64,000 bases of DNA from an uncultured bacterium (GCA_964653455.1 CAZZFK010000008.1:21949-85948), one strand, 5' to 3'; positions 30,301 to 56,805 are shown, counted from the stretch's first letter. Numbers and translations are program-made. Notes: a model not told the origin generated them from the letters alone.

Positions 30301-33300
30301 GATTGATCATGCAGGGCAGAACCTGTTCGGGTATTGGGCATCGGACGCGCTGGGGTGGACAGAAACGCCGAACTGGGTCAATTCCGAGAATCTCCATATT
30401 GATAAGGACGCGCCGGTCGTCACGAGCAACCTGCATATATACAGCTATCCGAACGCGAAGCGTTGGTTCAGTGCCGATAATCTTCCGGTGGAATATACCC
30501 TGGACGATCAGTTACGCGCCCATGTCGTGAGCGGGAACCTGCTGCATCGGGCCGATCGTCTCGGTGACGGTACATCCAGACTGTATTACAAGGTCGATGA
30601 TAATCCGACCGGCAATCTGTACGCTGATCGGCGCGAATTAGGGTCCATCTTCCCGTTCGCGGTCCTGCCGACATTGAACGGCGAGATCACCGGCTGGGAT
30701 AAGACCGCGGCCGCCGGCCTCAGTCCGTACGTGGAGCCGTTCACGCTGCGCAGTGCCGACGGCGTACTGCCTCCGCTCGACGGTGAAGGCGTGCATATCG
30801 TGTATTATTGGGCGGAAGATAAGTATGAACATGTTTCAACGGTGAATTTTGTCGATGATATACGCATCGATAACGGCAAGCCTGAGCTCAGTCTTAATAT
30901 GGGCGGCAGCTTCCAGACCGTATGGTGCACGGACCCTGCCGGCATTCAGGCCATTATCGAGGTCAGGGATTTCTATGAAACGCCGGTCTCTTATAATTCC
31001 GCATGGTATCGCGGTCAAATGCCTCCTTCAGGCTGGATGATCGATGAAGGGGAGAAGACCATAATCCCGGGTTCGGGTATCAAGAGCTTCTGGTACCAGC
31101 TGAACTCAGAAATACCGACCGAGGTCACGTTCCCCGGGGAAGAAGATCCGCTCATCGATTATCTCGAGTATCGTTTCACGAAGACCTTCGTGGTACCGAT
31201 CATGACCAACGGGTATAACGTACTGAGATATATCATTACGGATAATGCCTATAATGTGGCGGACATACATTCCGGGCATCTGGAGTGGCATTCGGACCTT
31301 CGTTCCTGGATATCGGACTCCGATACGGGCATGATCAGGTACATACGTCTGGACAATGAACCGCCGACGGCAGCTGCAGTGCTCCTGAACCGGTATAAGG
31401 CCGCCCCGTTATATACGAACAACCGGTTGGTCTCCTGTAACCTGCAAGCTCAGGATTTCGGTATCGGCGTGAAATACGCGATGATCTACGGCTATGATGA
31501 TTCCATACCCGATGCGGAGAATAATCCGTACGCCTGGACGGCACTTGAGCCGACGATCAATGTTCTGTACCAGTTCTTTACGACCAATACCTGGAACATG
31601 ATCGCGGATACGGATGCGGACCGGTATTGGGATTTCGATAACAATCGCAGCCCGCGTGCGATCGTTGATATGCATAAGTACATATATCTCGAGGATAGGG
31701 ACGGAACAAAGAACGTGCAGGCGGTCTTCGCCGATGATTTCGGCATGCCGTATGAGAGCGTGTCTGCCGATGAAGAATGCGCGTACGTGACATATCAGTC
31801 CTGGAGGGATAATGTGTCCGCGAACGGACAATATCCCGTGTTCACCACGGCGGAGAAAGCACGTCTTGATGCGATCCCGTTCGAGAAGTGGCCGACACGG
31901 GCGGTGTACATCGCGCGCATGCCTGCGATAGAGAACCATGCCAGCGTGACCGCGAGCACGCTCATCATCCTCGATCGTCAGATCGTGGCGGGCAGTGTCA
32001 CGTCCAGTACCGTATTACAGACCAAATATGGCCCGTATGTGACCACCCGGAACGTTAAGCTGTCCATCTCGCATGATGATCCCTCAGAGCTGAGCGGCAT
32101 CGACGCCGTGATGATCTATGGCGACCTTGCGGAGAACGGGAAGAACAATGTATGGCTGCCGTACACCTCCGGCAGCAGCCAGGATATCACGGTGCTCATC
32201 CCTCAGGCGGAGTACGATTCTGTCACTATCGACCTGTACGTGGTCTGGCGCGATCGTGCGGGCAATATCAGCACGCCGGTCACGATGAGCTTCCAATATG
32301 AAACACCTATGCAGGCGGATAATCCGCAGTATCGTATCAATTTCCCGACCGCGGGATGGTATATGACCACACGTAATGTCTCGGTGCTCCTGAATTTCCC
32401 GGGAGCGAACTATGTACACTTTGTCGGCGATGTGGATAGCACGTTCAGTACCTTGAATTACAGAACGAACGTTTCCTGCATGCTGTCCGAAGGTGATGGC
32501 CTGAAGGCCATGGGTATCTGGCTCGAGGACCGGCTGATCTCGACCATCACCATGACCCAGAACTTCCTGCTCGACCGCTCTGCACCGTCCGGTACGGACA
32601 ATGTGAACACCGGTATCATCTATGAGGACCAGAACGGTGCGACCTTCACGCTTTCCTTCTCTGATGTACCGACACCCGGCATCCAGGTCTCCGGCATCAA
32701 GAAGATCTATTATCAGATCAATAGTGAGGCCGTGGTCACCGTGGAAGTGCGTGATGCTTCCGGCTATTATTCGGCGCCGACCGCGAACAAGATCACGGTC
32801 ACTATCCGCAATAAGAGCGCGCATAATCAGTTGAAGTATTGGGCGGAAGATATGGCCGGGAATATATCCGCGGTCACTGCGATAAGCGGTATCAAGGTAA
32901 ATACGCTGCCGATAGCGGTACCGCAGCTCAGTCCGGTCACGGTCAATCGGTACACGGATGTGCTCCCCGGAGAGGACGTGTATTACGTGAACAGCAGGAC
33001 CGTGACCTTCAATTTCTCCGCGGTGAATGCGGACCGCATGTGGCTCTATGGCGATATCGTTGAGGACGGAACGGGACCTGTGGTCATCACGGTCGGCGGC
33101 GTCACCAAGCGTTCCGTTCAATTGACCGGCGCCGAGAATGTCGTACAGCATGTACGTGTCGTCTATGGCGATGATTTCTCGAGCATCGGAGGTAAGACCA
33201 TCTCGACCACGCTCAATATCATCCTTGATACGGTAGCTCCGGCCAGCCCGTCCCTTGTGTCCCTGTCGGCGCAGGTCAGCGCGTCAATATACTGTACCTC

Positions 33301-34240
33301 CATCACACCGTTGCGCTTCCGAGTCCATGGTAACGGTTCGGATGTGGGCAGCCAGTCGATCGCCATCAAGAAGAACGGCGTCGATGCGGTACGGTCCAGC
33401 GAGGATGTGACCCTGGTGAGCAAGCTCGCTGTGGATTTCGCGAAGCCCGGAGAGCAGAGCGTGTTCTCCGTCGTTGCCCGCGACCGCGCCGGCAATGAAA
33501 GCGTACCGGTGACGTTCAATGCCCTGTTCAATCCCAACGGCGGTGTGCGTCTCCTCTCCGGCGATCTGCCTGACGATGTTGATGTGACCGTCGAGGTCGT
33601 GGACCCGAACGATGAACGGATGCAGCAGGCCAATAAGAAATTGAAAGGAGTTATTGCGAACACCCCGCTTGAAGGTACCGTACGCGATTTCACGGCGAGC
33701 GGAGATGTTTTCAACGGCACCGAACTTGAAATGGTCATGCCGTTCCCGACCGCGCTCGGCAGCATCAACCCGTATGACCTGAGGATATATACCTATGATC
33801 CTCTGACCGCCAAGTGGGTACAGGTCCAGGGTGAACATGTTGTCGATCTCGAGGCCCGGGTGATCCGTGTACGCGTCACGCACTTCTCGATCTATCGCGT
33901 GTTCGCGGTCAGACCGTTCGCGAGCAGTCTTTCCAGTGTTCGCGTATACCCGAACCCGTTCAAGCCGGATTCAGGCGACCGCAGCCTGGGCGGTGCGGAG
34001 GATACGTCATATATCACGATCGATAATATCACGCAGACCGCGAAGATACGTATCTACACGATCTCCGGAGAGCTGGTCCGTATCATCGAGGCTGACGAGG
34101 GCGTATCGCAGCTGGAATGGGATGCGACCAACACCGAAGGGGAGCAGGTCGCCAGCGGTGTATACATTTACCTGATCACCGATAAGGACGGACATAAGAA
34201 GATGGGCCGCATAACGATCATACGCGGAGAGGTAGAGTAG
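15320..34240 (+). CDS. Giant secreted multidomain surface protein (6306 aa): Gly-rich region, Pmp-like beta-helix, 3x FG-GAP propellers, Ig-like/cadherin-like domains, LamG-like domain, T9SS-type C-terminal sorting domain
   Basis: A single uninterrupted 18,921-nt ORF. Signal peptide MIMHTRTSGLLKNVLMTAGIMLCVFGSAPAFS. A Gly-rich low-complexity region spans roughly residues 60-270. A right-handed beta-helix with GGAI/FxxN-type repeats (AAGGAIYSLGS…FNSTFLSN) maps to about nt 17940-19170. Three blocks of FG-GAP repeats carry DxDxDG calcium loops (for example DVNGDGYDDIVVA, GDLDGDGYDDFMVGAPY) at about nt 19620-20850, 21470-22400 and 23370-24850. Numerous beta-sandwich domains follow, then a C-terminal VRVYPNPF…GVYIYLIT domain. 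Confidence 0.9.
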   Translation: MIMHTRTSGLLKNVLMTAGIMLCVFGSAPAFSLETQNLAFTVSGSFSIPAGATSVNLAVTLVGAGGNGGDRYYSTALYYSQGGGGGSGYLATSANLIPAASTYYVVVGSPTNVAAGDGSATQLRATSAAGTLLLSATGGTGGITGTTVKGGNGGGGYGGGGGGGAYRSGNIITGGTGGAGSAGAGGSGGAALAGSRGGGGGGGYDSIGTPASGGTASGNAGTGGFGGGNGGTATSVGGTLPSGGYGPYVNGAYRGSGGTGAGFSGAFSAANNKGSNGYAYITMTYAPDVTPPVLNGVPYYSKPFSSGTMMFKWYAASDGTGAGVSDYYYEIYRDECVTDNLVSSGWTTGLSFTYSGGIPGATYYCRVKARDAAPTQNVSTFSDYSQGLLVTNPAIVAKQLTILTIKPSGSQAKKDAHGYYFNGSSATAGDGYELRVNDTTSGEQAHPSLAALKNRNFVAVWSNAGNIYGKIISPTGDIVKAEFKINAYSQYDALSCYPRVAGLSNGMFVVVWEVYNSSGKRDIYIRRFAADGTPYSSTASGSGSTTEVQVGNNVPTLDKRQPDIAALGNGRFVVVFDMTSASTGKSVINKAVYYDTGSLSSPIQLVAIAPIDAAQDCVYPRVASFGPTRNEYAVVWGTEYSISNPPNPPNPAGGDICMISYDNANFATASARLVNQTTSLKQFNPVITGYATGFAVAWASESGSDIGNDGYYFYYRNWGISGYQANDTWSNVFFRQYDVYGVSTNAQQIVEQGSRLTSYLDPAINAIESTASINGMIALCYLKTQDSEALLYQTTYTIPAHTSEVFARFYSLEGSSLSDTSTTINTYTAGIQDGIALASMGAVDKSYLMTAWNSAGQDGSGLGVFARQYVIGPRVLNLTRGKSYATIQAALDDAENNDQIVLIEGVFNLDEPLIFKPGLKVTLRAYTEQGVSRANTIISGQYVSRLMEFGAGVSVSIENLTLVQGAVEETNGYFGAVVSCNSSAKSELFFRNVLFKDNYAAQGGGVMFLQGATRAKAPVVLLETCEFSNNYAADLGGSAIYAVNASVTVDRCLFNGNNSTAAGGAIYSLGSYIYAFNSTFLSNKASTYGGVYYGGEDPTSGQDGELLAERCTFARNSVASTGRGDVLYLANNTAFTARNCLFHHNYLSTAQTYAMVINTSSRAYFYNSTFSAHRGVALWTAGANSIFQAYNTLFTDCGPATSMFAGTALDAIVEHCSVDEALPSKIGTTGTIVGDPKIAFSSYPFLVKGSPCVDSGIYLADVTVDIEAVARPQGVSYDIGAYEGARLFVSDLYPGNSFAAPQDLQIQAVLWMVSCNAQYPLTVTINDLNGATKDATLVFLSTETLYQTDKYQGIIVRVDDTHSRLLVYAKDSSFLENGDHFSVQINSVHTPPRGELYRTDDPEPFFNDEQMEFFVAGVPFLSEWYAGGLTRNNTVSYNSSVGNGADIDQDGYPDLIVGDAGFNGETGQAFLYYGGPEQERDVKAVFTGVTPNSRFGAMVGMAYINKDGYGDVLIGAPGEKKIYLYYGTKALAGASALDTEHPSFVITAPDDSAYGFGEKFDVGDVNGDGYDDIVVAVPSYNSDAGAVFVYNGRSLLAGGKSSAATYRTLSGSGQGFAQAAIVGGDLDLDGVEDIVVGLPDGGTDKAGLAYVYFGAAGTPDFFTAGSLMTKTLQAQVPAANDHFGYSLAKGKDINHDNFADILVGKYTEPGDSGCAWVVYGGVRSDIGSSVKVRTIVQPRDIERDNENVSANSSAQQFGITVASAGDLDGDGYDDFMVGAPYAGSTGMGMIFVYMGGKLIDESFDAYNFNGYVIAGHDAGAHTGASLLNIQDYNADGYDEVAFNDRFAGKNTVHVMYNAAATDIAAPVITYAMPRTGMAGVPENPTFNITIYDRGKSGLNLASIEVRLYPRGMGEADSLEAYLQRKIINSAGLDTAGSTGFNSAQVKDAYMVLTLASGVTVPIAAGIPVDDYNDALGMVKAISIYFTLNDVLESSEGYELEVKAQDWGAVLPAYQYTGQYFSGLALTPNIISFSTNQKLFVSGNTGTNVKSIGDFNGDGLDDVAVFTPGATYGEIYNTTNASWFVGIPAPGTNANKGYVLLYFGGPDIKFDTPNVILVGGDTSGTFATDVFGIPQVTLTHADSGDVYHDVVVLEGKAVNDSGYSRVHVFSGQAMDKTDTPVIMSNGVPSQVSKNVYIDRGIPLYDINGDDYPDIAVSDGGTSNAVYVLYGSGTGFQTNKSVISGPAGSAFGSALAECGRTLVIGAPNASYGDFEYRGAVGVVANNTDETLLPDKIVAVGEMWLGARAGAHFGASLASGYFNDTYTSPNTVATGAYPDIAIGAPNDDQFAENAGSVTIFFGKSALFTPLPVATPDVVLLPESIDSEFGTRLAAAKYLSTPAHYKRWALGYDRYNKDYFDNYDDLIVSARTYDNAMASTTGNGKIYIYAGGTTLSQTADAGYLGGAREELSLITNGGDVLGMNSDSLFVIKASEGAGQFYLLQNRDIPDTVYPTFVRVYPPNDSYDVSVDSDIIFEVSDASGILKESLIVYRYRKDYTDTSREIVKAGVVADKSQTNPIKEYELVSADIGSSGTTVRFTLSPHPQNYEPLPGEYPAGQWTESEPVNVDLYIGDKRTVWVSDTKKNIQSLMTKLNYGFMTKFKANEAQKIQLLGEEDMPNTYFGSSIASVGDVNADGYTDFVIGEYGNNQYGPYSGKAYLYLGSGDFYELARADLTLTLGSGTASSRFGYKVAPAGDMNNDGYDDVAVTALNSGSTGAEVFVLFGGPGVISGLNSARWDLTFLNTYATVVQGAYPQDGFGTAVYGNGDINGDGYDDLLIGAPYTDIDSKEEAGRVYVILGRKYESSYGQTGARHLNPDNEGGARGPIRATELAELSADTLSSFDPSDTNGTLRGFCISGTTAYERFGSAVMSGVNINGDTAVVAVNNAANVNATKNTEVSELLIGAPGTSHAKGAVHVYSFNTGTKVLSRATLLTGEAEGDQFGSSLTSMGDMTNDLELLGTEYEEFAVGAPYNNANGTDAGSAYLYLGKSDCASVTSAYLAFYGQNAGDAFGYALANVGNVDNDQYGNNDLAISAPFNARGGKNAGRVYIFGSALSSEKPHTLVMDKMADYANEGEAGYVFGYDVSGLGDLDGDFVPEYLIGAPSYASNNIENRGRVFLYTNPDDFGPTLNLAWLNPQDGSTGNKKVHSYFDETLSATVNIPLTIRLYAKDNRIVYINGSSVELRGEDENKAYTYRFSNPVTGVNYYTIHNRKIVEFFVVHPYYRYGEMVDVTANIIDVCGNKLGANMALTPNYMGAPYTFRFQVEENPYDGPSKLVAKVNPVPDTNGAGLYGDSKLYTDNPNISVALAARDMKGGVCYVNFGMGSLDIMQVVDNIPVSQLSGLAGAVTADMFDDDGSTAITFNINVSANNFKVYNPYSSFGRATLSSGDGVKTFAFQAWDMSLNPSEVVTVSIILDTLPPTISERCPTPGSTGVANQVSVSFTASDAGSGINLENLSVVVARGADRYQYFVPYGLQSVVFAPFTENCSTNTSVADYFAQINNGSLQDGIGCISTEGIADLSAGTMLRSGSSVYNDGVISLTLSGFDYTQDALELAFRSDITVEGIVEQGYALSLERVSGQTYSRLSLKKVLPKSTVVLATRNLTTVDSSQTAPRLQVVMNGSYLKVFWNNELKIEMQDNTYITGRVGIAAPAGKHIALDQIDIVRLPAITITAGDDADTQLVHQNNFENDTAEFTNGTDVAAGRVDDPDTDGIEPINQVLRLTSSPTTISFYTDASSIPGLASDHVINFKYLVSNAGSAGTVFFRVQDQNNGYILSLEGSTVRWGKLVNGTYYDSESGWCATSDITLASRTNAVNEWSSYTLKVNGTKFTLLQDAVVLSSVTDVDAAHPAFISGGFGFAAIGGNIIYLDDLSASNILKNKLYATISLPYFNYEDEISISINIEDMTAADYPTHRIVDHFSFTVSPDYRAPYDPSVVIDDGAEYSRLMVFVSANAVDDMGVVDIFISGDVTNNGLTEGMTTVDAWVSANAEDYAIYLDPYLSEGYRNLEPSDGKRIVSVKFRDAQGNVSAIATDDILLSYFSTEGRPVISKFFINGATRAAAEKAKFTSSNTVALYIDGFDVEGVTPTTEGKIVAYRLMGHITANTQVEPGKWYPYPATKIIPAVALATSEGIRTIAMQFLDRDYITANATDSDVVVQLAAINDQTASINSLGRTSSWNYASITFDRTPPFFNFWLNNPVNMYRSSYFCRSEGKLSGSWKASDTYSGIARYDYCIYEVSQNTGWVTASLSYETSTNYTLIQAWKTVPAAQIINDLATVTSNLALESGKDGYCFVVNAIDGAGNVAQVTTNLLAVDITKPYATVYYDSSALLSRPVFDIDFADDRAGLYQVSVALNNKFGAQRIITNINEDEVGIPSKNGAYRTLYSKNWRLDDDIWADLAEGENTLYFKITDAAGNVVYPSDSDSTGETSYTFIKDTLAPTGTARFNGGALYTKNLVTTVNVDFSSEGYFGMVYMTRYPVSEDMFLEDHSFEDAGDLGVLPSWNMVMNGLSSSQVSMSVKLFGSTATTKNTACSIKDGLYGLVVSFNVSTQGNESAKLGGWALQKQVNIATANVTYNFHGFVNVANISGIATGSEWIVADVSYYDSTLGQTVRVVCPDTIWNGEADSKSGWNMFQGNIFIPNNSEVTLRFTFGAKTWQNTNGYIVLDDINFIPGGDLVVTENKSISFLYNLESGDDGYRKIYVAARDQAGNWKNSEKSIFYDTTPPSFNAPNCGVQLYTISGNGTYQKNNTKLMCGYRADDGLGSGVSFYTYTIDVSMMVTADADGDLVEPVWTEYKSVSGKTAVLTTDDIPTRRNTSYRYRVRAVDALGNTSNYTTSNVVIVDVDAPQSFVTVSASLPDGINPQGSGWYKDGPILVTISAVDHSRVFNTLYDLPTRNGCGVSTINYVKGYVRDGVAVLEPTVSVTIVSPTQEVTVAIDHAGQNLFGYWASDALGWTETPNWVNSENLHIDKDAPVVTSNLHIYSYPNAKRWFSADNLPVEYTLDDQLRAHVVSGNLLHRADRLGDGTSRLYYKVDDNPTGNLYADRRELGSIFPFAVLPTLNGEITGWDKTAAAGLSPYVEPFTLRSADGVLPPLDGEGVHIVYYWAEDKYEHVSTVNFVDDIRIDNGKPELSLNMGGSFQTVWCTDPAGIQAIIEVRDFYETPVSYNSAWYRGQMPPSGWMIDEGEKTIIPGSGIKSFWYQLNSEIPTEVTFPGEEDPLIDYLEYRFTKTFVVPIMTNGYNVLRYIITDNAYNVADIHSGHLEWHSDLRSWISDSDTGMIRYIRLDNEPPTAAAVLLNRYKAAPLYTNNRLVSCNLQAQDFGIGVKYAMIYGYDDSIPDAENNPYAWTALEPTINVLYQFFTTNTWNMIADTDADRYWDFDNNRSPRAIVDMHKYIYLEDRDGTKNVQAVFADDFGMPYESVSADEECAYVTYQSWRDNVSANGQYPVFTTAEKARLDAIPFEKWPTRAVYIARMPAIENHASVTASTLIILDRQIVAGSVTSSTVLQTKYGPYVTTRNVKLSISHDDPSELSGIDAVMIYGDLAENGKNNVWLPYTSGSSQDITVLIPQAEYDSVTIDLYVVWRDRAGNISTPVTMSFQYETPMQADNPQYRINFPTAGWYMTTRNVSVLLNFPGANYVHFVGDVDSTFSTLNYRTNVSCMLSEGDGLKAMGIWLEDRLISTITMTQNFLLDRSAPSGTDNVNTGIIYEDQNGATFTLSFSDVPTPGIQVSGIKKIYYQINSEAVVTVEVRDASGYYSAPTANKITVTIRNKSAHNQLKYWAEDMAGNISAVTAISGIKVNTLPIAVPQLSPVTVNRYTDVLPGEDVYYVNSRTVTFNFSAVNADRMWLYGDIVEDGTGPVVITVGGVTKRSVQLTGAENVVQHVRVVYGDDFSSIGGKTISTTLNIILDTVAPASPSLVSLSAQVSASIYCTSITPLRFRVHGNGSDVGSQSIAIKKNGVDAVRSSEDVTLVSKLAVDFAKPGEQSVFSVVARDRAGNESVPVTFNALFNPNGGVRLLSGDLPDDVDVTVEVVDPNDERMQQANKKLKGVIANTPLEGTVRDFTASGDVFNGTELEMVMPFPTALGSINPYDLRIYTYDPLTAKWVQVQGEHVVDLEARVIRVRVTHFSIYRVFAVRPFASSLSSVRVYPNPFKPDSGDRSLGGAEDTSYITIDNITQTAKIRIYTISGELVRIIEADEGVSQLEWDATNTEGEQVASGVYIYLITDKDGHKKMGRITIIRGEVE
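33938..34237 (+). other. T9SS-type (Por_Secre_tail / FlgD-Ig-like) C-terminal sorting domain of the giant protein
   Basis: VRVYPNPFKPD…AKIRIYTISGELVRII…EWDATNTEGEQVASGVYIYLIT matches the hallmarks of type-A CTDs (YPNP motif, …iYd.sGrlV…, GvYfy…). Confidence 0.6.
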
Positions 34241-34274
34241 GTCTTTTCCCGGATAAAGGATATACGGATGATGG

Positions 34275-34306
34275 ACAGGGGCCGCATTATGCGGCCCCTG
34301 TCTTTT
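34275..34306 (+). terminator. Rho-independent terminator downstream of the giant gene
   Basis: A perfect GC-rich hairpin caggggccgc-atta-tgcggcccctg (10-bp stem) is followed by tcttttat. Confidence 0.6.
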
Positions 34307-34504: not shown

Positions 34505-35698
34505 ATGAAAAAAGATATCAGGACGGTAATCATTTCTTTATTGATCATGTGCGTTTGCGTAGCCTCGGCACAGGCCGGCGGCGTAGGGACTTCAGGCGCG
34601 AACTACCTCAAGATCGATGCGGGCGCACGTTCTGCGGCCCTTGGCAGTGCGTATGTGGGTCTAGCCAATGATATCAACGCGTTGTACTTCAATCCTGCAG
34701 GTCTTGTTGCTATTCCGCATGCGGCCGTTGATACGATGCAGCTCAATTGGCTGGCGGATATCACGCAGCAGCAGATCGCAGGCGTTATTCCGGTCGAGGG
34801 CTGGGGCGTGTTCGGAGGTTATTATTCCAGTCTTGCCACACCGTATGATAAAGAGACCAAGTATGATTCGGCGTACGGATATGCGTCCACGGGGGATCAA
34901 TTCAACAGCGAAGTGAAGGTCATTGATGTCGCCTATGCCTTTTCCATCAATAAAGAACTGAGCGCCGGTCTGGGCGTGAAGACCATCGAAGAACGTCTGG
35001 CCGATGTCAAAAAGACCGGCATGGCGGCGGATGTCGGTCTGCTGTATCGGGGCTTCTTTTTCAAGGAACTGTCGGTCGGTGCGGTCGTTCAGAACATCTC
35101 GGTATCTCCTCTTCGAACGGACGAGCCGCTCCCGCAGACGATCGTTATCGGGATGGCGTATACGATGAGCTTGTTCGAGACGCAGCGCCTGACCTTCCTT
35201 TCGGACGTCGGGATCCCCAATGACGGTGTAACCGCGCTGGGTGTCGGGGTTGAATATGCACTGAACCGCTATATCGCTTTCCGCGTGGGATATAAGGATA
35301 AGGTCGGGTTCACATTGGGCGGCGGACTTTCGTTCGGCAACCTTAATCTGAACTATGCATATGTGCCGTATGGGGAGCTGGGCAATTCGTATCGTATCGC
35401 CGTCGGCTATGATTTTGATACTGTCGATACTGAAGGAACGGTCGAAACGCCTGTCGAGCCGGTGAAAGAAATGACCAAAGAAGAGCTGTTCAAGGAAGAA
35501 AAGAAGGCCGCTCCGGCAGTGAAACCGGCCGCTACAGCGGTCGAGAAAAAGATAGAAACGCCGGCTGCCGATAATAAGTCCTTGTTCGAAGAAGCGAAGC
35601 CTGTTGAGACGGAAAAGAAGGTCGAAACTCCTGCCCCAAAAGCGGTAGAAGCGGTCCCGACGGTAAGTGCGGGATTCGACGGTCTCTTCGATCAATAA
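34505..35698 (+). CDS. FadL/TodX/PorV-like outer-membrane beta-barrel protein with a Lys/Glu/Pro/Ala-rich C-terminal tail
   Basis: Signal peptide MKKDIRTVIISLLIMCVCVASAQA. The N-terminal motif LGSAYVGLANDINALYFNPAGL parallels the FadL N-terminal hatch motif ([25 protein letters not shown]). A barrel-like amphipathic C-terminal strand ends …RIAVGYDF, followed by about 90 aa of low-complexity KEPA-rich sequence. The start is set at the in-frame ATG 34505. Confidence 0.65.
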   Translation: MKKDIRTVIISLLIMCVCVASAQAGGVGTSGANYLKIDAGARSAALGSAYVGLANDINALYFNPAGLVAIPHAAVDTMQLNWLADITQQQIAGVIPVEGWGVFGGYYSSLATPYDKETKYDSAYGYASTGDQFNSEVKVIDVAYAFSINKELSAGLGVKTIEERLADVKKTGMAADVGLLYRGFFFKELSVGAVVQNISVSPLRTDEPLPQTIVIGMAYTMSLFETQRLTFLSDVGIPNDGVTALGVGVEYALNRYIAFRVGYKDKVGFTLGGGLSFGNLNLNYAYVPYGELGNSYRIAVGYDFDTVDTEGTVETPVEPVKEMTKEELFKEEKKAAPAVKPAATAVEKKIETPAADNKSLFEEAKPVETEKKVETPAPKAVEAVPTVSAGFDGLFDQ

Positions 35699-37480: not shown

Positions 37481-37613
37481 AACTTTTATTCACACACTGT
37501 TCGTTTCTTGCCACTTTTTCTCGTATCTTCAGCAGAGTATAACACAGAATATGCTGGACAAAAATGTTGAAAATGCTACAATAATGCTGAAAAATCAAAC
37601 AGGGGGGCGTGTT

Positions 37614-39830
37614 ATGTCTCATCCCATATTCGGGAGGAGAAGATTTTTCTTCTTATTACCGTTGTTCCTTTTCCTGTTGTTCTCGACAGCTGTTTTTGCT
37701 GCTGAGTATGAATATACATACGATCATATGCAGTCCATGATCCCCGCCACTTCGATCGGTCCTGATTTTGTCAGTGTATCCATGCTGCAATTCCGTATAA
37801 AAGCGACGAGCAATAATATAACGATAACATCCCTGACCATCGGCAGTGGGGATGCTTCCACTGCTTCTCCGGGTGTATATGCACCGAATACCACAGATCG
37901 GGAGTCATATATCAAACGCATCGAGATATATTGTGATGCTACCGGCAAGGATAATGAAACGTATGACGAAGGAACAGACCCTTTGGTCGGCAGTATGGAC
38001 CTGGGGATCACTAATTCAAAGTATGAAGCGATCTTGCCGATATCGGGTGTTCCTACGTTGATCTCGGCCAATGTGACAGGCAATACAAAGGCGTTCTATG
38101 TGTTCTATTCTACGGGAGCTTCGATGGTCCCGGGGACAGTGGTCAAAGCGCAATTACGTAATGTCGGTATCTCTGAAAGTCCTGCGTTATGTAAAGCGAC
38201 ATTACCGGCAGCGTATGAGTGTTCGTTCGTCCTGGCCACGGTCAATATCTCTTTGTACTCCGTTGCCGCAGCATTACCGGTAGTTCCTACACCGACATTC
38301 TTCGCCTTGGGTGGAGAAAGGGATATCCCGGTGCTCACGTTCACCCTTAAGACCACCGAGGTCCTTTCCAATGTTTCAATAAATATAAAGAACGTTAAGA
38401 ACTCATTCATTAATAGCGGCTGCGGAGTAGATAGGGTCCGTATCAAGCGCAAGGACCCGGATTCAACGGTCACGGTCGTGGGCTACACCTCGGTATTCCA
38501 GGGCAGTTCAGTGGCTGTTGTCCCTATCCAGTCCATTCCGTACGATAACGGCGGGGAGTGTGTCTATACGGTCTACTATGATATGTCCCCCGGCTCGCTC
38601 GCTAATACAGAGGTCGCGGGGCAGTTGGCCAATATATCCGGTCCGGGGGTCGTTTTCAACTCGGGTACTTTGCCGGCTCCGCTCACGCCGCCCTCTTTTA
38701 ATGTCGTTCAGGCGCCTATCTCGGCATTGTTCGTAACGACGAACACCCAGCAGGTCAAAGCAGGCGATCAGTTCGTGTGTCAGCTCGTTTTTAAGCATAT
38801 CGGTACTGAGGTCAGCTATACGAGAGAGTTACAGATAGATGAAGTGCGTCCTGTCTTTTATAACGGGAATATCAATGGTGCCGATATCTCATATGAGTAT
38901 TCCTACCAGTTCCAGCGATGGGACAGTGATGGCGGGTCATCAACGACAACACAGTCCGCGGTCCTGCAGAACGCACAGCAGATCACGTATAACTTCCTGG
39001 TCACGGTCTCGAATCCCAAGACCGTCGGTATGATCAATGTGGATGCGTACATCAATTACCGTGATTTTGGTTTTGTGGCGAACAAACCGCAGCAGATCAT
39101 CATGTCCAGATATCTCAAGTCCTCGAGTTATATTTCCGCGGCCAAGAATTCTCTGGTGGGTTATTTCATGAACACGGAGTCCGATGCCGACTATGATTTT
39201 TCGTACAGATTACCGTCCTATATCGCCAGTATGAACGTACAGCCGTACGGGGTCGGCGCCGTCAAACGGTTCATGAACGGAGATAATGTCGCGAGACAAT
39301 CGAAACTGTTCGTGACGCTCGTCAATGAGGGGAAATTCTATGATGCCGATACGCTCAAACTGTACCTGAACGGGACCCAGCTGATCATCGTTACGGATTA
39401 TACGGTCGCGAACGGCATCATCACTGTGAAGAACCTTGGAACGAAGAGCGGCGTGCTCAGTATCTCGTGTGCGTCCGGGCCTTCGCTGCTCGAGACCGCA
39501 TATATCAAGTATTACATAGAAGAGGAGTTCACGATCAAGGACCTTATGGCAGGGCCCTCGCCCTATAAGGCGGCGGACGGTGACCTGTATTTCAGCTGTC
39601 AGCTGCGTGAGGCGGCCACGGTCAAGATCTCCGTGTATGATTCGGCGGGTCAATTGATCTGGAAGTCTGAAACCCTCGAATGGGGCGAAGGGTACAATGA
39701 ATATGCCTGGAACGGTAAATTGGACGTGGGCGGGGATATCGGTCGCGGGACCTATGTCGCATATGTTGTCGCGAAGTGTACGCGAACGGATTCTGAGAAA
39801 CGACAAAAGATAAAGTTCTCGGTGTTCTGA
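37614..39830 (+). CDS. Secreted protein with a C-terminal FlgD-Ig/T9SS-like sorting domain (function unknown)
   Basis: Signal peptide MSHPIFGRRRFFFLLPLFLFLLFSTAVFAAEY. The C-terminal ~100 aa read …KISVYDSAGQLIWKSETLEWGEGYNEYAWNGKLDVGGDIGRGTYVAYVVA…, which fits the …iYd.sGrlV…W.G…GvY… pattern. The ORF track starts at 37551; the in-frame ATG at 37614 is preferred. Confidence 0.6.
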   Translation: MSHPIFGRRRFFFLLPLFLFLLFSTAVFAAEYEYTYDHMQSMIPATSIGPDFVSVSMLQFRIKATSNNITITSLTIGSGDASTASPGVYAPNTTDRESYIKRIEIYCDATGKDNETYDEGTDPLVGSMDLGITNSKYEAILPISGVPTLISANVTGNTKAFYVFYSTGASMVPGTVVKAQLRNVGISESPALCKATLPAAYECSFVLATVNISLYSVAAALPVVPTPTFFALGGERDIPVLTFTLKTTEVLSNVSINIKNVKNSFINSGCGVDRVRIKRKDPDSTVTVVGYTSVFQGSSVAVVPIQSIPYDNGGECVYTVYYDMSPGSLANTEVAGQLANISGPGVVFNSGTLPAPLTPPSFNVVQAPISALFVTTNTQQVKAGDQFVCQLVFKHIGTEVSYTRELQIDEVRPVFYNGNINGADISYEYSYQFQRWDSDGGSSTTTQSAVLQNAQQITYNFLVTVSNPKTVGMINVDAYINYRDFGFVANKPQQIIMSRYLKSSSYISAAKNSLVGYFMNTESDADYDFSYRLPSYIASMNVQPYGVGAVKRFMNGDNVARQSKLFVTLVNEGKFYDADTLKLYLNGTQLIIVTDYTVANGIITVKNLGTKSGVLSISCASGPSLLETAYIKYYIEEEFTIKDLMAGPSPYKAADGDLYFSCQLREAATVKISVYDSAGQLIWKSETLEWGEGYNEYAWNGKLDVGGDIGRGTYVAYVVAKCTRTDSEKRQKIKFSVF

Positions 39831-39853
39831 GCGGTCGTTCATGGGGGGCATAG

Positions 39854-42800
39854 TTGAAACGCTATAATTGTTTTTTCGTCGCTGTGCTATTACTGATGTG
39901 CTGTTGTGTCGGCGGGGTCGGCGCAGCACGTCGTTCCACTGATCCGATGACGACCATTACGGACGTCCGTGCGCTCGGCATGGGGCGTGCCGGCATGGCG
40001 ACGCTCGGCGGGAGCAATGCGCTGTTCACGAACCCTGCAGGGTTGGCCAAGGTAAAGACCATGGCGGCAAGTACGTTCTCCACAAAGGTCCTGGAAGATT
40101 TCAATTATTTCGGCGTCAACGGGGCGATGAACACTGGATGGGGTGTTGTCGGGCTCGGATACGGCGGCATGAGCGTTGATGAGATCCAAGAGACGTTCCG
40201 TTACAAGATGGACGGCGAAGTCCGTAATTACTCTCTCGGGACCTATAGTGCCGGCAGTAAGGTGTTCATGGTGGGGTATGCGACAAAAGTACCGTTCCCG
40301 TTCCTGAAAGACCTTTCTCTCGGTATCGGACTTAAGAGCGCTACGGAATACATCGACGCGACCGACGCCACATCCTTTGAGACCTCTTCGATCTCTGGGT
40401 TCGGCGGCGATATCGGCGTGCTGTTCCCGTTCCGTATGTTCGGGCACGACTATGAATGCGGTATCGCCAAGATGAACGCGTTCTCGCCCCAGTTCACTGA
40501 CGATGAAGGCGGTGACCCTTCGGAATATGCGGCGATCAATCGTATCGGTATATCCACCGGTATCGATCTTTTCGGGCAGCATGTGATCGCAGCCCTCGAT
40601 AATGATAATTTCGGGACGCACCTGGGGACGGAAGTGCAATTGCCGGGCGGGTTCGCGGTACGCGCCGGGACCGACGGGACGGATTATTCCATGGGGCTCG
40701 GCCTGACGATCTATTCGGTGACCGGGTTCGACAATAAACCGCACGCCATCGCGATCGATTACGCATGGGTCGCGAACAATGCGCTCCTTGATAATGTCGG
40801 TGTGGCGGACAATCTGAACATGATCAGCTTCAGTTATCTGGGGGTCTCTCAGACCGACAAGCCGATCCTGACCTCTCCGTTAACGGGCAGGACGTTCACG
40901 GTACCGACGATCACGGTCGAGGGGAAAGCGGAGCAGGACACAGAGGTCACCGTGTATGTGAACAATGTCCCTCAAAAGGTCGTTAAGACCGAAGCGAAAG
41001 GTACGTGGAAAGCGGAAGGTATCACCCTTACGCAAGGCCGCAACGAGGTGAAGGCCTTTGCGCAAAAAATGGATTTTGCCGACAGTGAGTTCTGTGCGCC
41101 GGTCATCGCCTACGGACAACTTTCCGCTCCGGAACTCTCGACGACGATCGAGAAGCGCGGGAACCGCGTGACGATAAAAGCTTCGAGCCCGGTCGAACTG
41201 CGGCAGGTAGCCACAAAGCTGCCGAACGGAGAGACCATTGCTTTGACCTTTGATCCTCAGACCCAGTTGTGGGTCGGGACCTGGCAGGTGCCTTTTGAGT
41301 TCATGGATAAACAGGTAGCACTGCAGACGCGCGGTGTGGATACGCAGGGGAATAGGACCGATATCGTTTCTCAGAAGGTGCTCGCCAAGAGCATTATCAT
41401 GCCTGCGGATAAGACCGTGACGACAAAACAATATCTCGAGGTGAAAGGATATGCGCCTGCACGTGTTGCACATATCACGGTCGCAGGACAGGAGGTCATG
41501 CCGAGCACGGACGGATCATATACGGCGATGGTCGATCTCGCGGCTGTCGGTAAACAGAACATCGATGTGGTCATGACCGATGCGGCCGGCCGGACCAAGA
41601 CCTCTGAAGTGAGGGTCTTGCGTAAAGCTTCCGCTCCTGATGTCGGGACGGATTCCTTCGCGTATGCGGCCATCAATGATCTCTTGACCATGGGAGCGAT
41701 GCAGCCCGTGTCCGAGAATAATTTTGAACCTAAAAAGCCGATCACACGTGCCGAACTGGCGGTGCTTGTCGCTAGGGCGAAGATGCTCCCTCCGGGGACA
41801 GCGACGTTCACTGATGTGCCCGCGAACACGAGCTATGCCGGAGCGGTCAGTGCCGTCGTCGGCGCAGGTCTGCTCGGTGCCTATCCTGACGGAACGTTCA
41901 AACCGCAAGGGCTGATCACACGCGGGGAGGCTGCGGTCGTCCTGATAAAGATCTATGGCGTGGAGCTGCCGGAGGGCACACCGGAAGAGGTCTTTACGGA
42001 CGTGAAGCCGACGCATCCGCTTGCCGGGGCGATATCCGCCGCTGTCGAGAACGGTTTGATCGCTGTCGAGGACGATTCCTTCTATCCGGACCAGATGCTC
42101 GATCGTGAAACGGCGGCTTTCTGGTTCTCAAAGACCAGAGAGATGAAACAGCAGTTAAGAGAGCTGCAATCATGGCCGGACCTCAATGTGAACGGGTCGG
42201 AGCTCTCGGATATGGAACGCATGGAGGGCCAGCTTGTGGTCGATTTTGCCGATGCGCAATGGACCGCGCAGGAAGCAGCAGCAGGGCTCAAGCTCATGGA
42301 GCCGGTGGACCAGAGCATCACCTATGAGCCGTACGCGATCGTTAAAGGGCTGGTCACGCCTGCTGTTGCGGTCTCGGTGAACGGACAAGCGGTCATATTG
42401 GAGAGGAACGGTTCATTCGTCGCGGGAGTTCCTCTTGAGCTCGGGATGAACCTTATTCTTGTAGAAACACCGACCGAAAAAAGAAAGGTCAGGGTCTTGA
42501 GGGAAGCGGCGTTCACTGATGTGCCCTCCGGCAATGCCGGCGATGATATCCGAAAGCTCGGCTCTCTGGGGTATCTTGAAACGGACCGTTCGTTCTATCC
42601 GGAACAGGGCGTGACGCGACGTGAACTGGCTGTGGTGCTCGTACGTTCCAAGGAGGACCAGACCCCCAGTTCCGCTCCGCGGCTTCAGGACGTGGCGGCC
42701 GATGATCCCCAGCTGATGTACATACAACGTGCGGTCGATCTCGGCTATTTCACGGTGAGCGCGAACTATTTCATGCCGAACACGGTGGTCTCACGCGGAG

Positions 42801-44041
42801 AGGCCGCAGCGATCCTTGCCGCGTTCCAGGGGCTCACCGTCCCTCAGGCTGCGCTCACACGGAAGCCGTTCGCTGACGTTCCTGCGGAGCATCCGTACGC
42901 CAAAGCGATAGCGACGGCCCTGCAGGCGGGGATCATTCTCCCAGCGGAACAGTATTTCCCTGATGAACCGCTGACCAGACAGGACCTGGTCGATATGCTC
43001 ATGCGCACGGCGGTGATGCAATCCCGTATGAACCGTTTCATGGATTGGAACGGGTATGACATCAATAAGACTCGAGCACCGGTATTGCCCAGGAAAAAGA
43101 CCGCAGTGATCGATGTTCCGGGAAGGACCGCTCCCCGGATCGCAGAGGCCGCTGACGAGGAGACATCCGATACCTACCTGCGTTTTGCTCCGCCCATGGA
43201 GGCGCAGATGCAGCAGGGCGTCATTTATCCGCGTACGGCCGATTCGGTGGGGGTCGGAACGCCGCTCCTTTCGATCATCTCCCCCAAAGATCTTTTTGTG
43301 ACGACGCGTGCTGATATTGATGTTGCGGGTGTCGCCACTAACGGAGGCCCGGTACAGGTCAACGGTAATACCGTTGCCCTCAATCAAAAAGGTGCATTTC
43401 AGACCAGGACAGGACTGAAGCCGGGAAAGAACGTGATCACGGTAGTTTCCGCAGGGGCGACCGAAAAACGCAGGGTCTTGCGTTTGTTCACGTACAATGA
43501 TATCAGCGGTATACCCCAGAAAAAGGTCATAGAGTATCTGGCGACCCTCGGCTATTTCGCAGAAGGAACACAGTTCTATCCTTCGAAAGCGGTCGCGCGT
43601 GATGAATTGGTCACGATCGCGCTCAAAGCTGGGGGGGTCAGGCCGGGGACCCCGCTCACACAAAGTTATTCTGACGTGCCGTTGAGCTATTGGGCCGCAC
43701 CTTCAATATACGCAGCAGCGGATGCCGGCATCATCGAAAAAAAAAACACTTTTCAGCCTCAGTCTGACGTGACCCGGGGAGAGGCGGTCGCGATATTGCT
43801 CAAGGCCTTAAAGACGGGCATCCCGCAGGGGGCGTTGAAGGCCCCGGTCTTTACGGACGTTCCTATCACACATCCGTATGCTAATGCCATAGCAGTGGCC
43901 ATGTCCAAAGGTATCGTTGCGCGGACCGATCGTTTTCAACCTGATATGAAGCTGACCCGTGCGGACCTGGCCGTATGGCTCGTCAATACTGCTCCCGTGA
44001 AGGAACAGATAGTCCAATTGAGGGATTTTAAGAACACCTGA
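39854..44041 (+). CDS. Fusion protein: N-terminal FadL/PorV-like outer-membrane barrel domain + Ig-like domains + about ten SLH (S-layer homology) repeats
   Basis: Signal peptide MKRYNCFFVAVLLLMCCCVGGVGA. The N-terminal ~330 aa are paralogous to the 34505-35698 product (ALGMGRAGMATLGGSNALFTNPAGLA versus ALGSAYVGLANDINALYFNPAGLV, and GWGVVGLGY versus GWGVFGGYY). The C-terminal ~800 aa (about nt 41620-44041) carry repeated SLH units such as FTDVPANTSYAGAVSAVVGAGLLGAYPDGTFKPQGLITRGEAAVVL, FTDVPSGNAGDDIRKLGSLGYLETDRSFYPEQGVTRRELAVVL and FTDVPITHPYANAIAVAMSKGIVARTDRFQPDMKLTRADLAVWL. Confidence 0.7.
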   Translation: MKRYNCFFVAVLLLMCCCVGGVGAARRSTDPMTTITDVRALGMGRAGMATLGGSNALFTNPAGLAKVKTMAASTFSTKVLEDFNYFGVNGAMNTGWGVVGLGYGGMSVDEIQETFRYKMDGEVRNYSLGTYSAGSKVFMVGYATKVPFPFLKDLSLGIGLKSATEYIDATDATSFETSSISGFGGDIGVLFPFRMFGHDYECGIAKMNAFSPQFTDDEGGDPSEYAAINRIGISTGIDLFGQHVIAALDNDNFGTHLGTEVQLPGGFAVRAGTDGTDYSMGLGLTIYSVTGFDNKPHAIAIDYAWVANNALLDNVGVADNLNMISFSYLGVSQTDKPILTSPLTGRTFTVPTITVEGKAEQDTEVTVYVNNVPQKVVKTEAKGTWKAEGITLTQGRNEVKAFAQKMDFADSEFCAPVIAYGQLSAPELSTTIEKRGNRVTIKASSPVELRQVATKLPNGETIALTFDPQTQLWVGTWQVPFEFMDKQVALQTRGVDTQGNRTDIVSQKVLAKSIIMPADKTVTTKQYLEVKGYAPARVAHITVAGQEVMPSTDGSYTAMVDLAAVGKQNIDVVMTDAAGRTKTSEVRVLRKASAPDVGTDSFAYAAINDLLTMGAMQPVSENNFEPKKPITRAELAVLVARAKMLPPGTATFTDVPANTSYAGAVSAVVGAGLLGAYPDGTFKPQGLITRGEAAVVLIKIYGVELPEGTPEEVFTDVKPTHPLAGAISAAVENGLIAVEDDSFYPDQMLDRETAAFWFSKTREMKQQLRELQSWPDLNVNGSELSDMERMEGQLVVDFADAQWTAQEAAAGLKLMEPVDQSITYEPYAIVKGLVTPAVAVSVNGQAVILERNGSFVAGVPLELGMNLILVETPTEKRKVRVLREAAFTDVPSGNAGDDIRKLGSLGYLETDRSFYPEQGVTRRELAVVLVRSKEDQTPSSAPRLQDVAADDPQLMYIQRAVDLGYFTVSANYFMPNTVVSRGEAAAILAAFQGLTVPQAALTRKPFADVPAEHPYAKAIATALQAGIILPAEQYFPDEPLTRQDLVDMLMRTAVMQSRMNRFMDWNGYDINKTRAPVLPRKKTAVIDVPGRTAPRIAEAADEETSDTYLRFAPPMEAQMQQGVIYPRTADSVGVGTPLLSIISPKDLFVTTRADIDVAGVATNGGPVQVNGNTVALNQKGAFQTRTGLKPGKNVITVVSAGATEKRRVLRLFTYNDISGIPQKKVIEYLATLGYFAEGTQFYPSKAVARDELVTIALKAGGVRPGTPLTQSYSDVPLSYWAAPSIYAAADAGIIEKKNTFQPQSDVTRGEAVAILLKALKTGIPQGALKAPVFTDVPITHPYANAIAVAMSKGIVARTDRFQPDMKLTRADLAVWLVNTAPVKEQIVQLRDFKNT

Positions 44042-44897: not shown

Positions 44898-45683
44898 ATG
44901 GGTAGCGGTATTAATAAGCGCATGCTTGTCATCTCGCTGATATTCGGCATTGTCACGTTCATGGGGACAACGTTGTACCTTGGTTCGGTCTCCAAGGACC
45001 AGAAATTCAAAGCAGAATTGATCTCTGTCATCACCGCGAAGGCGAACATCCCTCCGCGCACGGTGATCACCAAGGATATGGTCCAGAACAAGTCCATCCC
45101 TCGGCAATATGCGCTGCCCGGAGTGTTCGTGCAGCCGCAGGAGGTCATCGGCAAGATCACGAATACGCCGATCATCCTGGGGGAGCAGATCGTGTCCGGG
45201 AAGGTCTCGGTACGCGGACAGCAGCTCGGGTTGTCTTTCATCGTTCCGAAGAATAAGCGTGCGGTATCCGTTGAGGTGGATGCCGCGGCCAGTATCGCCG
45301 GTCTTATCAAACCGGGGGACATGGTGGATATCCTTTGTACGCTTACCGGCGACTTTAACCGTACGGTCACGGTACTGCAGAACGTGCAGATATTGGCCAT
45401 CGATCGTGCAATGGACACCAAGGACCAAAAGAATGAAGGCAAGGTGGACCGGTCCGTGATAGCGACCTTTGCTCTCGATCTCCGGGATGCGGAGAAAGTG
45501 GTACAGGCTTCGACAGCGGGCCAGTTGCGGCTGGTGTTGCGGGCCACGGATGATCATGATCTGGTCCAGTCCTTTGGTACGACCACCACAGAGCTGTTGC
45601 CGTACCGTCGTTCAGCCGGTGGCGGGTCGGCATATTCCATCCGTGTCGTAAAAGGGACGGATGTGAGCAGAAAAACGTTCTGA
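44898..45683 (+). CDS. cpaB: Flp pilus assembly protein CpaB/RcpC (SAF-domain periplasmic protein)
   Basis: N-terminal TM segment, then a SAF-like region (…ANIPPRTVITKDMVQNKSIPRQYALPGVFVQPQEVIGKITNTPIILGEQI…) and the RcpC/CpaB C-terminal domain. It is the first gene of the Tad cluster. Confidence 0.85.
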   Translation: MGSGINKRMLVISLIFGIVTFMGTTLYLGSVSKDQKFKAELISVITAKANIPPRTVITKDMVQNKSIPRQYALPGVFVQPQEVIGKITNTPIILGEQIVSGKVSVRGQQLGLSFIVPKNKRAVSVEVDAAASIAGLIKPGDMVDILCTLTGDFNRTVTVLQNVQILAIDRAMDTKDQKNEGKVDRSVIATFALDLRDAEKVVQASTAGQLRLVLRATDDHDLVQSFGTTTTELLPYRRSAGGGSAYSIRVVKGTDVSRKTF

Positions 45684-45694
45684 TAAGGAGCAGT

Positions 45695-48168: not shown

Positions 48169-48171
48169 TCC

Positions 48172-49653: not shown

Positions 49654-49659
49654 GCCGCC

Positions 49660-50586: not shown

Positions 50587-50597
50587 CGGGGGGCCGT

Positions 50598-56662: not shown

Positions 56663-56805
56663 AACAAACCCCTCCCGCCGCTGCCTCGATTAAACTCGGC
56701 ATGCTGCGGCTTCCTCCCCTGATCCCTCGGCTCCTCGAAAAACTCGGAGCACGGGGCAAGTCAGGGGAGGGGAAGGGTAGGAATCATATAAGGAGGTTTA
56801 TGACA

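Follow-up and report, generated by a model that had tools for sequence, protein, structure and literature searches.

What do the products of two adjoining genes in a Margulisbacteria genome (Margulisiibacteriota) do together? The genes are plus-strand ORFs, 37551-39830 and 39854-44041, lying 23 nt apart in the window, i.e. the whole 64,000-nucleotide stretch of DNA that was analysed. The original prediction had described a secreted cargo protein followed, 23 nt downstream, by a 1395-aa protein combining an outer-membrane barrel with SLH repeats. Both ORFs are present in the ORF list, and the two peptides quoted from the second protein, ALGMGRAGMATLGGSNALFTNPAGL and GWGVVGLGY, occur in its translation. 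The gene pair is real and conserved, and its products are probably a chain that connects a surface protein with the cell wall across the outer membrane; the earlier interpretation is supported overall.

The downstream gene (39854..44041, + strand) starts at a TTG and encodes 1395 aa with a signal peptide, a PorV-like barrel, Ig-like domains and three SLH triplets. The Sec signal peptide read from the translation is M-KRYNCFFVAVLLLMCCCVGGVGA (39854..39925, +). Orthologues align from the same N-terminus as the TTG start, and a database gene call starting at M15 would truncate the signal peptide. The possibility had been raised that two genes were joined here by error, an assembly or sequencing artefact having fused a barrel gene with an SLH gene. 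Split versions are indeed known at two related loci (L019 and L020), and one relative (P0003) is broken near its C-terminus. However, the fusion product (1381/1395 aa) is identical in three separate assemblies, orthologues sharing 52% and ~30% of its residues match it colinearly from end to end, and those from MAGs and SAGs show no frame break at the junction. The same domain order is widespread: among the 148 best barrel relatives, 81 have SLH repeats, as a rule three of them, and in all 81 these lie C-terminal to the barrel. An artefact is therefore hardly credible. Sequence databases contain many such fusions, so the architecture is not confined to this lineage. The earlier remark that no such fusion was known to be described holds for the literature searched, where we found no description of it. 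Nor was a comparable anchoring system described for this bacterial group in that literature.

The region following the signal peptide (39941..40849, +) is a 14-strand FadL-superfamily outer-membrane barrel with an N-terminal hatch, closest to PorV. This agrees with the expectation that the N-terminal ~330 aa form a barrel paralogous to the one at 34505-35698 (BLASTP E 9e-15, 28% identity over 224 aa). The NPA(GL) hatch motif is kept, and the final strand, ...MISFSYLG, looks like an internal beta-signal. The PorV/PorQ family is represented by NCBIfam NF033709 and by Pfam PorV PF19572; with the NCBIfam model the barrel gives 49.8 bits (E 3.7e-13), which is below the curated cutoff of 90. PorV is its nearest neighbour in both structure and sequence. 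Could it be a FadL/TodX-type channel for hydrophobic substrates, tethered to the wall by chance? The NCBIfam FadL match is marginal and concerns the 34505-35698 paralogue only, the profile matches in the PDB are to PorV and not to FadL, and the genomic partner is a gene for a protein with a C-terminal sorting domain (CTD), not one for lipid or aromatic-compound catabolism. We regard such a channel as very unlikely. Because the number of strands is even, the C-terminus of the barrel should emerge in the periplasm, a placement supported by strand count together with homology.

Beyond the barrel, all on the + strand, there follow a first Ig-like domain of the Glucodextran_B type (40871..41080, aa 340-409; PF09136 E 1.3e-5 in a search with this segment alone), a beta-rich spacer domain (41126..41398, about aa 425-515) that has no Pfam match and is conserved and colinear in orthologues, and another Glucodextran_B-type domain (41402..41623, aa 517-590; PF09136 E 6.3e-11). 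SLH triplet 1 (repeats 1-3; 41639..42136, aa 596-761) carries the motifs TRAE, TRGE and DRET. Two further Glucodextran_B-type domains (42287..42475, aa 812-874, PF09136 E 1.9e-8; 43262..43453, aa 1137-1200, PF09136 E 2.8e-12) precede, respectively, triplet 2 (repeats 4-6; 42512..43009, aa 887-1052) and triplet 3 (repeats 7-9; 43487..43990, aa 1212-1379), both delimited with a local repeat HMM. The Ig-like domains foreseen for this protein are thus present as four Pfam matches and one further beta domain. The predicted SLH array is present as well (PF00395, 205.9 bits, E 5.8e-62, cutoff 20.8), but the count of about ten repeats needs correction: the local repeat HMM finds exactly nine, as three triplets, and no tenth even at E<=10. 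Most repeats retain TRAE-like motifs; triplet 1 can be aligned along its whole length with the SLH domain of B. anthracis Sap (3pyw, E 4.4e-13), and PDB chains with SLH from Veillonella and Deinococcus are matched too. No csaB was seen in the 64-kb window. In a published table CsaB is recorded for three Margulisbacteria and for WOR-1 genomes, as are OmpM and SLH proteins for Margulisbacteria/WOR-1.

On which side of the outer membrane does this arm lie? At L019 and L020 the Ig-SLH arm is encoded apart from the barrel, by a translationally coupled gene whose product has a Sec signal peptide, and the gene order is cargo, barrel, wall binder. The signal peptide of the split arms, seen in two genomes, therefore places the arm in the periplasm. 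In one relative (P0041) LysM takes the place of SLH at the same position, and a LysM gene comes next after one stand-alone relative. The even strand number, the split arms and the LysM-for-SLH exchange together support a periplasmic arm. Inverse-autotransporter-like display on the cell surface, as a coat or as a binder of extracellular pyruvylated glycans, is highly improbable by the same observations: the split versions have a Sec signal peptide only, with no evident route across the outer membrane, and the LysM variant points to peptidoglycan. Moreover, inverse-autotransporter barrel families give no match, and a plugged barrel of 14 strands differs from their open one of 12. The protein thus does not conform to type Ve, in which a 12-strand intimin/invasin barrel exports a C-terminal Ig passenger.

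The upstream gene (cargo gene 2; 37614..39830, +; ORF list and translation) most likely encodes 738 aa from ATG 37614; a start at 37551 would give 759 aa. We consider the ATG the likelier start because the signal peptide is then N-terminal, independent gene calls give 738 aa, and a Shine-Dalgarno-like motif is shared between the two genes (GGGGGG, 8-13 nt upstream of ATG 37614 and also upstream of TTG 39854). The earlier description of 37614-39830 as 759 aa was accordingly wrong in length, since that size needs 37551, and right in its FlgD_ig-type CTD. The protein consists of a Sec signal peptide, a string of beta-sandwich domains and the C-terminal sorting domain. Its AF2 model is all-beta (pLDDT 66, pTM 0.40), and Foldseek returned domain-level matches only, namely PorU, the Ig domains of PrgB and the MG domains of alpha-2-macroglobulin; we propose that it is adhesin-like. 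The CTD (39543..39827, +) resembles both the T9SS type A sorting domain and FlgD_ig. The extreme C-terminus gives 28.9 bits with Pfam FlgD_ig (cutoff 27) and 18.9 bits with CHU_C, and the CTD aligns with that of PorU at E 9e-7. With TIGR04183 (T9SS type A, Por_Secre_tail) it reaches 13.3 bits, below the cutoff of 23, which orthologous or analogous upstream proteins at other loci pass (L001, 25.1; L007, 24.5; L010, 31.1 bits). The PSPY/PNPF and GRGVY motifs line up in the CTD alignment.

A second pair of this kind lies in the same window. Its cargo (15320..34240, +) is a 6306-aa giant surface protein with FG-GAP, PKD, MORN and beta-helix elements, ending in a T9SS type-A CTD (33944-34225, +; TIGR04183 23.4 bits, cutoff 23; local CTD HMM) whose best alignment is to the PorZ CTD (local match 63 bits). 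The barrel that follows (34505..35698, +) is a stand-alone member of the PorV/PorQ family (NF033709 131.1 bits, cutoff 90) and ends in a Pro/Lys/Glu-rich tail of about 90 aa.

The cargo-then-barrel logic noticed at the outset recurs in nearly all related loci. A CTD-bearing ORF directly upstream of the barrel gene was found in the window (twice), at L001 (twice), L002, L007, L010, L011, L012 and L014, and further at L015, L018, L019 (twice), L020 (twice), L021, L022 and L023; eight of the paired loci are outside the HMM training set. The sole barrel-SLH locus examined that lacks such a gene directly upstream is that of WOR-1 (L008), where the barrel-SLH gene sits among housekeeping (tRNA-synthetase) genes and the CTD gene is 3 kb away. 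Pairing is therefore not obligatory. This copy also favours another reading, in which the fusion is only a general tether or channel between outer membrane and wall, an OmpM/OmpA substitute built on another barrel, and its adjacency to CTD genes reflects co-expression of envelope genes. The SLH and LysM variants and the periplasmic arm would fit that reading, as would the general use of OmpM-type tethers in this clade. However, a CTD gene lies directly upstream at all the other examined barrel-SLH loci even though the paired barrels share only 24-30% identity, the gaps between CTD and barrel genes are short or overlapping, PorV-family barrels are known binders of CTDs, and a canonical OmpM is already present in Margulisbacteria. 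A tether without a cargo is thus rather unlikely.

The one-to-one pairing of cargo and barrel, repeated in tandem, might also mean that the PorV-like barrel is the dedicated exporter, or an essential secretion partner, of the upstream CTD protein, as in two-partner secretion, with SLH merely fixing the machine to the wall. The T9SS is held to be unique to the FCB superphylum (PMC12421860), and the literature searched contained no report of a T9SS in Margulisbacteria. In the window, no T9SS core gene (SprA/Sov, PorK/L/M/N, PorU sortase) was seen among ORFs of at least 180 aa in the top 25 families listed. Secretion of SprB, furthermore, requires SprF. On the other hand, FadL/PorV barrels are narrow and plugged by an N-terminal hatch, whose NPA motif is conserved here, so that passage of a 6306-aa protein of folded domains is unlikely; known PorV and PorP proteins take cargo from SprA and do not translocate it. 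We therefore consider an exporting barrel improbable.

Taken together, a surface protein with its own outer-membrane dock, pinned to the cell wall by SLH, is the best explanation and, in our judgement, a probable one. Cargo 2 would be exported by Sec and then arrive at the cell surface, where its type-A-like CTD would stay attached to the outward-facing side of its cognate barrel of the FadL family. The 14-strand barrel would send its C-terminus into the periplasm as an arm of ~1050 aa, with three beta-sandwich spacer domains and then three modules of Ig plus SLH triplet. Each triplet would bind pyruvylated secondary cell-wall polymer on peptidoglycan, as in the OmpM-type tethers of diderm Terrabacteria. 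The net result would be a load-bearing, probably non-diffusing anchor running from cargo through outer-membrane barrel to cell wall, and the fusion may also supply a multivalent tether between outer membrane and wall. A point against this is that in the V. parvula autotransporter VtaG the SLH domain added little to anchoring. As a more tentative extension, it is possible that a CTD/PorV-type sorting-and-anchoring module operates in diderm Terrabacteria, namely Margulisbacteria, Saganbacteria and their relatives, and does so independently of the motor and translocon of the Bacteroidota T9SS, each large adhesin having its own FadL-family barrel that receives it, or even helps to export it, and couples it mechanically to the wall via SLH. 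If so, CTD-barrel recognition would be older than the FCB T9SS or independent of it, and Termititenax-type ectosymbionts would gain a load-bearing attachment apparatus.

Among known systems, the Bacteroidota pairs are close in barrel and CTD. There, PorU and PorZ are held on PorV and PorQ by CTDs that are not cleaved off, and PorP/SprF carries type-B CTD proteins. As in PorU-PorV and PorZ-PorQ, a 14-strand FadL-family barrel here would hold a surface protein by its uncleaved type-A CTD, and the CTDs align best with those of PorZ (giant) and PorU (cargo 2). The genes porU and porV of P. gingivalis are presumably adjacent, in that order. In contrast to those pairs, the present host lies outside the FCB superphylum, no SprA/Sov, PorKLMN or sortase was seen among the families listed for the window, the fusion barrel falls under the curated family cutoff, and PorV and PorQ have no counterpart of the ~1050-aa periplasmic Ig-SLH arm. 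The PorE-PorP-PG1035 and SprB-SprF systems likewise combine a CTD surface protein, a neighbouring cognate FadL-family barrel and a peptidoglycan binder. According to a published proposal, barrel-PorE complexes fix cargo that is not mobile to the wall; porP-like genes adjoin porE-like genes, and at the split loci L019 and L020 cargo, barrel and wall binder follow one another in just this order. The differences are that the CTD here is type-A-like and not type B, the barrel PorV-like and not PorP/SprF, and the wall binder an SLH array, fused to the barrel in the window, and not OmpA_C-like.

OmpM, Slp and the cyanobacterial SLH-porins share with the fusion an outer-membrane beta-barrel covalently joined to periplasmic SLH, with modified peptidoglycan or pyruvylated polymer as its ligand (here presumed), and the phylogenetic setting is the same, as OmpM, SLH proteins and CsaB all occur in Margulisbacteria and Saganbacteria. 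OmpM, however, consists of a single N-terminal SLH, a coiled-coil stalk and a trimeric C-terminal porin barrel, whereas the fusion has the reverse order, with an N-terminal FadL/PorV-class barrel, Ig-like spacers and three SLH triplets; it is therefore not an OmpM-type tether. The SLH-bearing trimeric autotransporters of Negativicutes, and OmpA, also place a C-terminal periplasmic wall-binding domain after an outer-membrane barrel, and in the autotransporters the barrel also keeps the adhesin at the surface. Their barrels are of other classes (a 12-strand trimeric YadA anchor and 8 strands in OmpA), and the autotransporter adhesin is one polypeptide with its barrel, whereas here a separate adhesin is presumably docked by its CTD. 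By analogy, the present system would be a fused, SLH-based counterpart both of the Bacteroidota CTD-PorP-PorE chain and of the OmpM tethers.

Gene pair 2 of the window consists of two co-directional open reading frames, at 37551/37614-39830 and 39854-44041, which are separated by 23 nt. The second is one uninterrupted frame of 1395 aa. In Pfam searches its product matched SLH (205.9 bits, E 5.8e-62) and four Glucodextran_B Ig-like domains, and its residues 35-243 matched the NCBIfam PorV/PorQ family (E 3.7e-13; 49.8 bits, below the curated cutoff of 90). About ten SLH repeats had been expected, but a repeat HMM built from the protein's own sequence found exactly nine, and no tenth, arranged as three triplets at aa 596-761, 887-1052 and 1212-1379. 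The first triplet and the SLH domain of B. anthracis Sap, known from its crystal structure (3pyw), aligned end to end (E 4e-13). Segment scans placed Ig-like domains at aa 340-409, 517-590, 812-874 and 1137-1200 and a beta domain without a family at about aa 425-515; one Ig-like domain stands ahead of the SLH triplet in each of modules 2 and 3. These matches therefore give the order signal peptide, barrel, three spacer domains and three SLH-triplet modules. For the upstream partner, cargo 2, the original prediction gave 759 aa, but the most likely product is a protein of 738 aa starting at ATG 37614. With this start the signal peptide falls at the N-terminus, independent gene calls agree, and a GGGGGG ribosome-binding-like motif precedes both this ATG and the TTG of the fusion gene. 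Promoter and terminator scans gave no signal above chance.

The frame at 39854-44041 might in principle have been two genes joined by an error, as was allowed for at the outset. The identical fusion protein was, however, assembled independently in three sequencing runs. Orthologues of 52% identity were found in a Ca. Margulisiibacteriota single-cell genome (GCA_042562495.1) and in two further runs, and with them the neighbourhood was kept: giant protein, barrel, GATase, ROK, a protein with a type-A-like C-terminal domain (CTD) and barrel-SLH protein. Another clade, with orthologues of about 30% identity that are colinear along the whole protein, includes Ca. Termititenax aidoneus and several MAGs from termite guts. 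An assembly artefact was therefore rejected, and the barrel-SLH gene pair is real. In contig searches a six-sequence alignment recovered eight loci, and the single fusion protein gave no match. One orthologue, P0003 (L002 8128-8547, L003 4100-4516; L numbers denote related loci in their own coordinates), is split close to its C-terminus into two overlapping frames (1273 and 138 aa). Two independent runs show the identical break, which would then be a real frameshift or pseudogenisation affecting the last SLH triplet, unless both runs share a sequencing error.

The N-terminal region had been read as a paralogue of the stand-alone barrel at 34505-35698 (barrel 1), which was borne out by BLASTP (E 9e-15); barrel 1 itself clearly belongs to the PorV/PorQ family (131 bits). 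Structure prediction, proposed as a check, agreed: the AlphaFold2 model of residues 1-345 (pLDDT 74.9, pTM 0.72) is a barrel of 14 strand elements with a short helical hatch in front. Since the barrel of the fusion protein and the CTD of cargo 2 fall below curated family thresholds, they are termed PorV-like and type-A-like here and not members. Readings of the protein as an inverse autotransporter or as a FadL-type transporter were considered and rejected. The last 90 aa or so of barrel 1 (35500-35698) form a low-complexity tail rich in Pro, Lys, Glu and Ala, which may serve as a spacer in the periplasm or make contact with the wall; Pro-rich tails are also present on the non-fused barrels of L019 and L020. 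Pfam TraF_2 (PF13729) matched the barrels of P0013, P0002 and P0003 and is the source of some 'conjugal transfer protein TraF' names, a label that likely denotes misannotated PorV-like barrels.

Both cargos of the window have C-termini like the type-A CTDs of T9SS. The giant cargo of pair 1 passed TIGR04183, the T9SS type A sorting domain model (23.4 against a cutoff of 23), and the best local match of its CTD was that of PorZ (63 bits). In cargo 2, FlgD_ig passed, the PorU CTD aligned (E 9e-7) and TIGR04183 remained below threshold. Upstream neighbours of related barrel-SLH genes passed or approached the same model (L001, 25.1; L007, 24.5; L010, 31.1; L012, 21.2), and upstream proteins of this type aligned in a PNPF ... 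IYD..G ... GVY ... K pattern. Local HMMs were then run on all fetched loci. A CTD frame immediately precedes the barrel gene twice each in the window, L001, L019 and L020, and once each in L002, L007, L010, L011, L012, L014, L015, L018, L021, L022 and L023; eight of the loci had no part in the HMM training. The sole exception is the WOR-1 locus (L008), where the CTD protein lies 3 kb downstream. The cargo-then-barrel order recurs in every fetched barrel-SLH locus but that one. The upstream proteins vary widely in size and domains, which fits diverse surface proteins that would each have a barrel dock of their own. The AlphaFold2 model of cargo 2 is a chain of beta-sandwich domains with low global confidence (pTM 0.40); it contains no enzymatic fold, and fold matches were at domain level only. 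The model suggests a tandem beta-sandwich, adhesin-like protein and nothing more on function.

Several further features of the cargos were observed. The giant cargo (15320-34240, 6306 aa) contains FG-GAP, PKD, MORN and beta-helix domains, and orthologues of it precede the same module in L001 (5874 aa) and L010 (more than 4110 aa). Between its gene and barrel 1 is a very strong terminator-like hairpin (34273-34303; 14-bp stem, 10 G-C pairs, T tail); therefore, barrel 1 may be transcribed separately or by read-through. On two unrelated contigs (L007 963-4361, L008 9874-11124), barrel-SLH genes adjoin genes for proteins whose N-terminal domain resembles Bdellovibrio mosaic adhesive trimer (MAT) fibres; the matches scored 34-39 bits, below the cutoff of 60, and one of these proteins contains collagen-like repeats in addition.

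Four observations support a periplasmic location of the Ig-SLH arm that follows the barrel. First, the number of barrel strands is even, as in PorV and FadL. Secondly, two genomes, that of Ca. Termititenax persephonae (L020) and a termite-gut MAG (L019), have a gene of its own for the arm, and the product begins with a Sec signal peptide. Thirdly, LysM (aa 389-430) replaces SLH in the barrel relative P0041. Finally, the gene downstream of the best-scoring stand-alone relative encodes a LysM protein (L024, 8001-10171). LysM appears to be an alternative wall-binding module of this barrel family, either fused or separate. The ATG of the split arm gene overlaps the barrel stop codon and is preceded by GGAGG, and fused and split forms are therefore natural alternatives. 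The tandem modules concerned (L019 2351-7222, L020 5322-16004) comprise a CTD protein, a barrel, the signal-peptide Ig-SLH protein, a further CTD protein of small size and another barrel, which in L020 has a 450-aa extension without SLH.

The distribution of barrel-SLH fusions was examined with a barrel profile against 1.84 billion cluster representatives (50% identity clustering), which gave 36,007 matches at E<=1e-3 and 2,877 at E<=1e-30. Pfam detected SLH in 50 and Glucodextran_B in 37 of the best 74 relatives. Among the best 148, to which the window's closest orthologues do not belong, 81 carried SLH repeats, C-terminal to the barrel every time; three repeats were commonest (56 cases) and six occurred in six. 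Nine repeats, as in the window, were found in the L001 orthologue, and among the proteins scanned in none beyond this orthologue group. The WOR-1 (Saganbacteria) example is publicly labelled only 'hypothetical' or 'SLH domain-containing', and the named examples seen were called only 'SLH domain-containing protein', 'hypothetical protein' or 'conjugal transfer protein TraF'. In the literature searched, no paper was found that links a PorV-type barrel to SLH, T9SS to Margulisbacteria, or type IX secretion to Melainabacteria, Vampirovibrio or Saganbacteria. The fusion is common in sequence data and widespread in metagenomes, yet undescribed and unannotated; a family with 2,877 representatives at E<=1e-30, over half of the best-scoring ones with SLH, needs proper annotation.

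Directly downstream of the fusion gene is a Tad/Flp pilus operon (44898-52423; RcpC/CpaB, secretin, ParA-like ATPase, TadA, TadB, TadC), and a TadE/G-like protein is also among the window's frames. In L001 and L002 groES-groEL follows the fusion gene instead; with GroEL at 56701-58464 in the window, the Tad cluster has the look of an insertion. At 17-2745 are two flagellar export genes, flhB (truncated by the window edge) and flhA, and L010 and L011, which carry fusion orthologues of about 30% identity, also adjoin flagellar genes (fliK-like, fliM/N/O/P/Q/R). A 1322-aa protein on the minus strand (9369-13340), with weak BNR and DUF4625 matches and no CTD match, may be another surface protein.

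SLH-based outer-membrane tethering is a hallmark of diderm Terrabacteria, and CTD/PorV-type surface-protein sorting is regarded as a speciality of FCB/Bacteroidota. The gene pair joins these two separately studied envelope themes and makes it testable whether CTD-barrel recognition occurs outside a full T9SS. It also bears on the shear resistance of giant adhesins in bacteria without Lpp and Pal, and on how sister lineages of the cyanobacteria, among them ectosymbionts of the termite gut that are attached to other cells, construct their surfaces.

Taken together, the original interpretation of gene pair 2 survived all tests available in this analysis. The cargo would be exported by Sec, reach the cell surface and be held there by binding of its CTD to the cognate barrel of PorV-like type; three spacer domains would lead from the barrel's periplasmic C-terminus across the periplasm, and the three SLH triplets would bind pyruvylated wall polymer. 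Here we infer both CTD-barrel and SLH-ligand binding. Neither csaB nor T9SS core genes were found in the 64-kb window, and the fusion sits in a phylum without described T9SS-type sorting. Among analogues with experimental support, the PorE-PorP-PG1035 chain of P. gingivalis comes closest. [quoted passage not shown] The wall-binding half resembles OmpM-type tethers, which a published table lists together with CsaB in Margulisbacteria and Saganbacteria, and also the Negativicute trimeric autotransporters, in which the C-terminal SLH domain is periplasmic. The fusion is best classed as a FadL-family CTD dock and an SLH outer-membrane tether, both of known kinds, in one protein.
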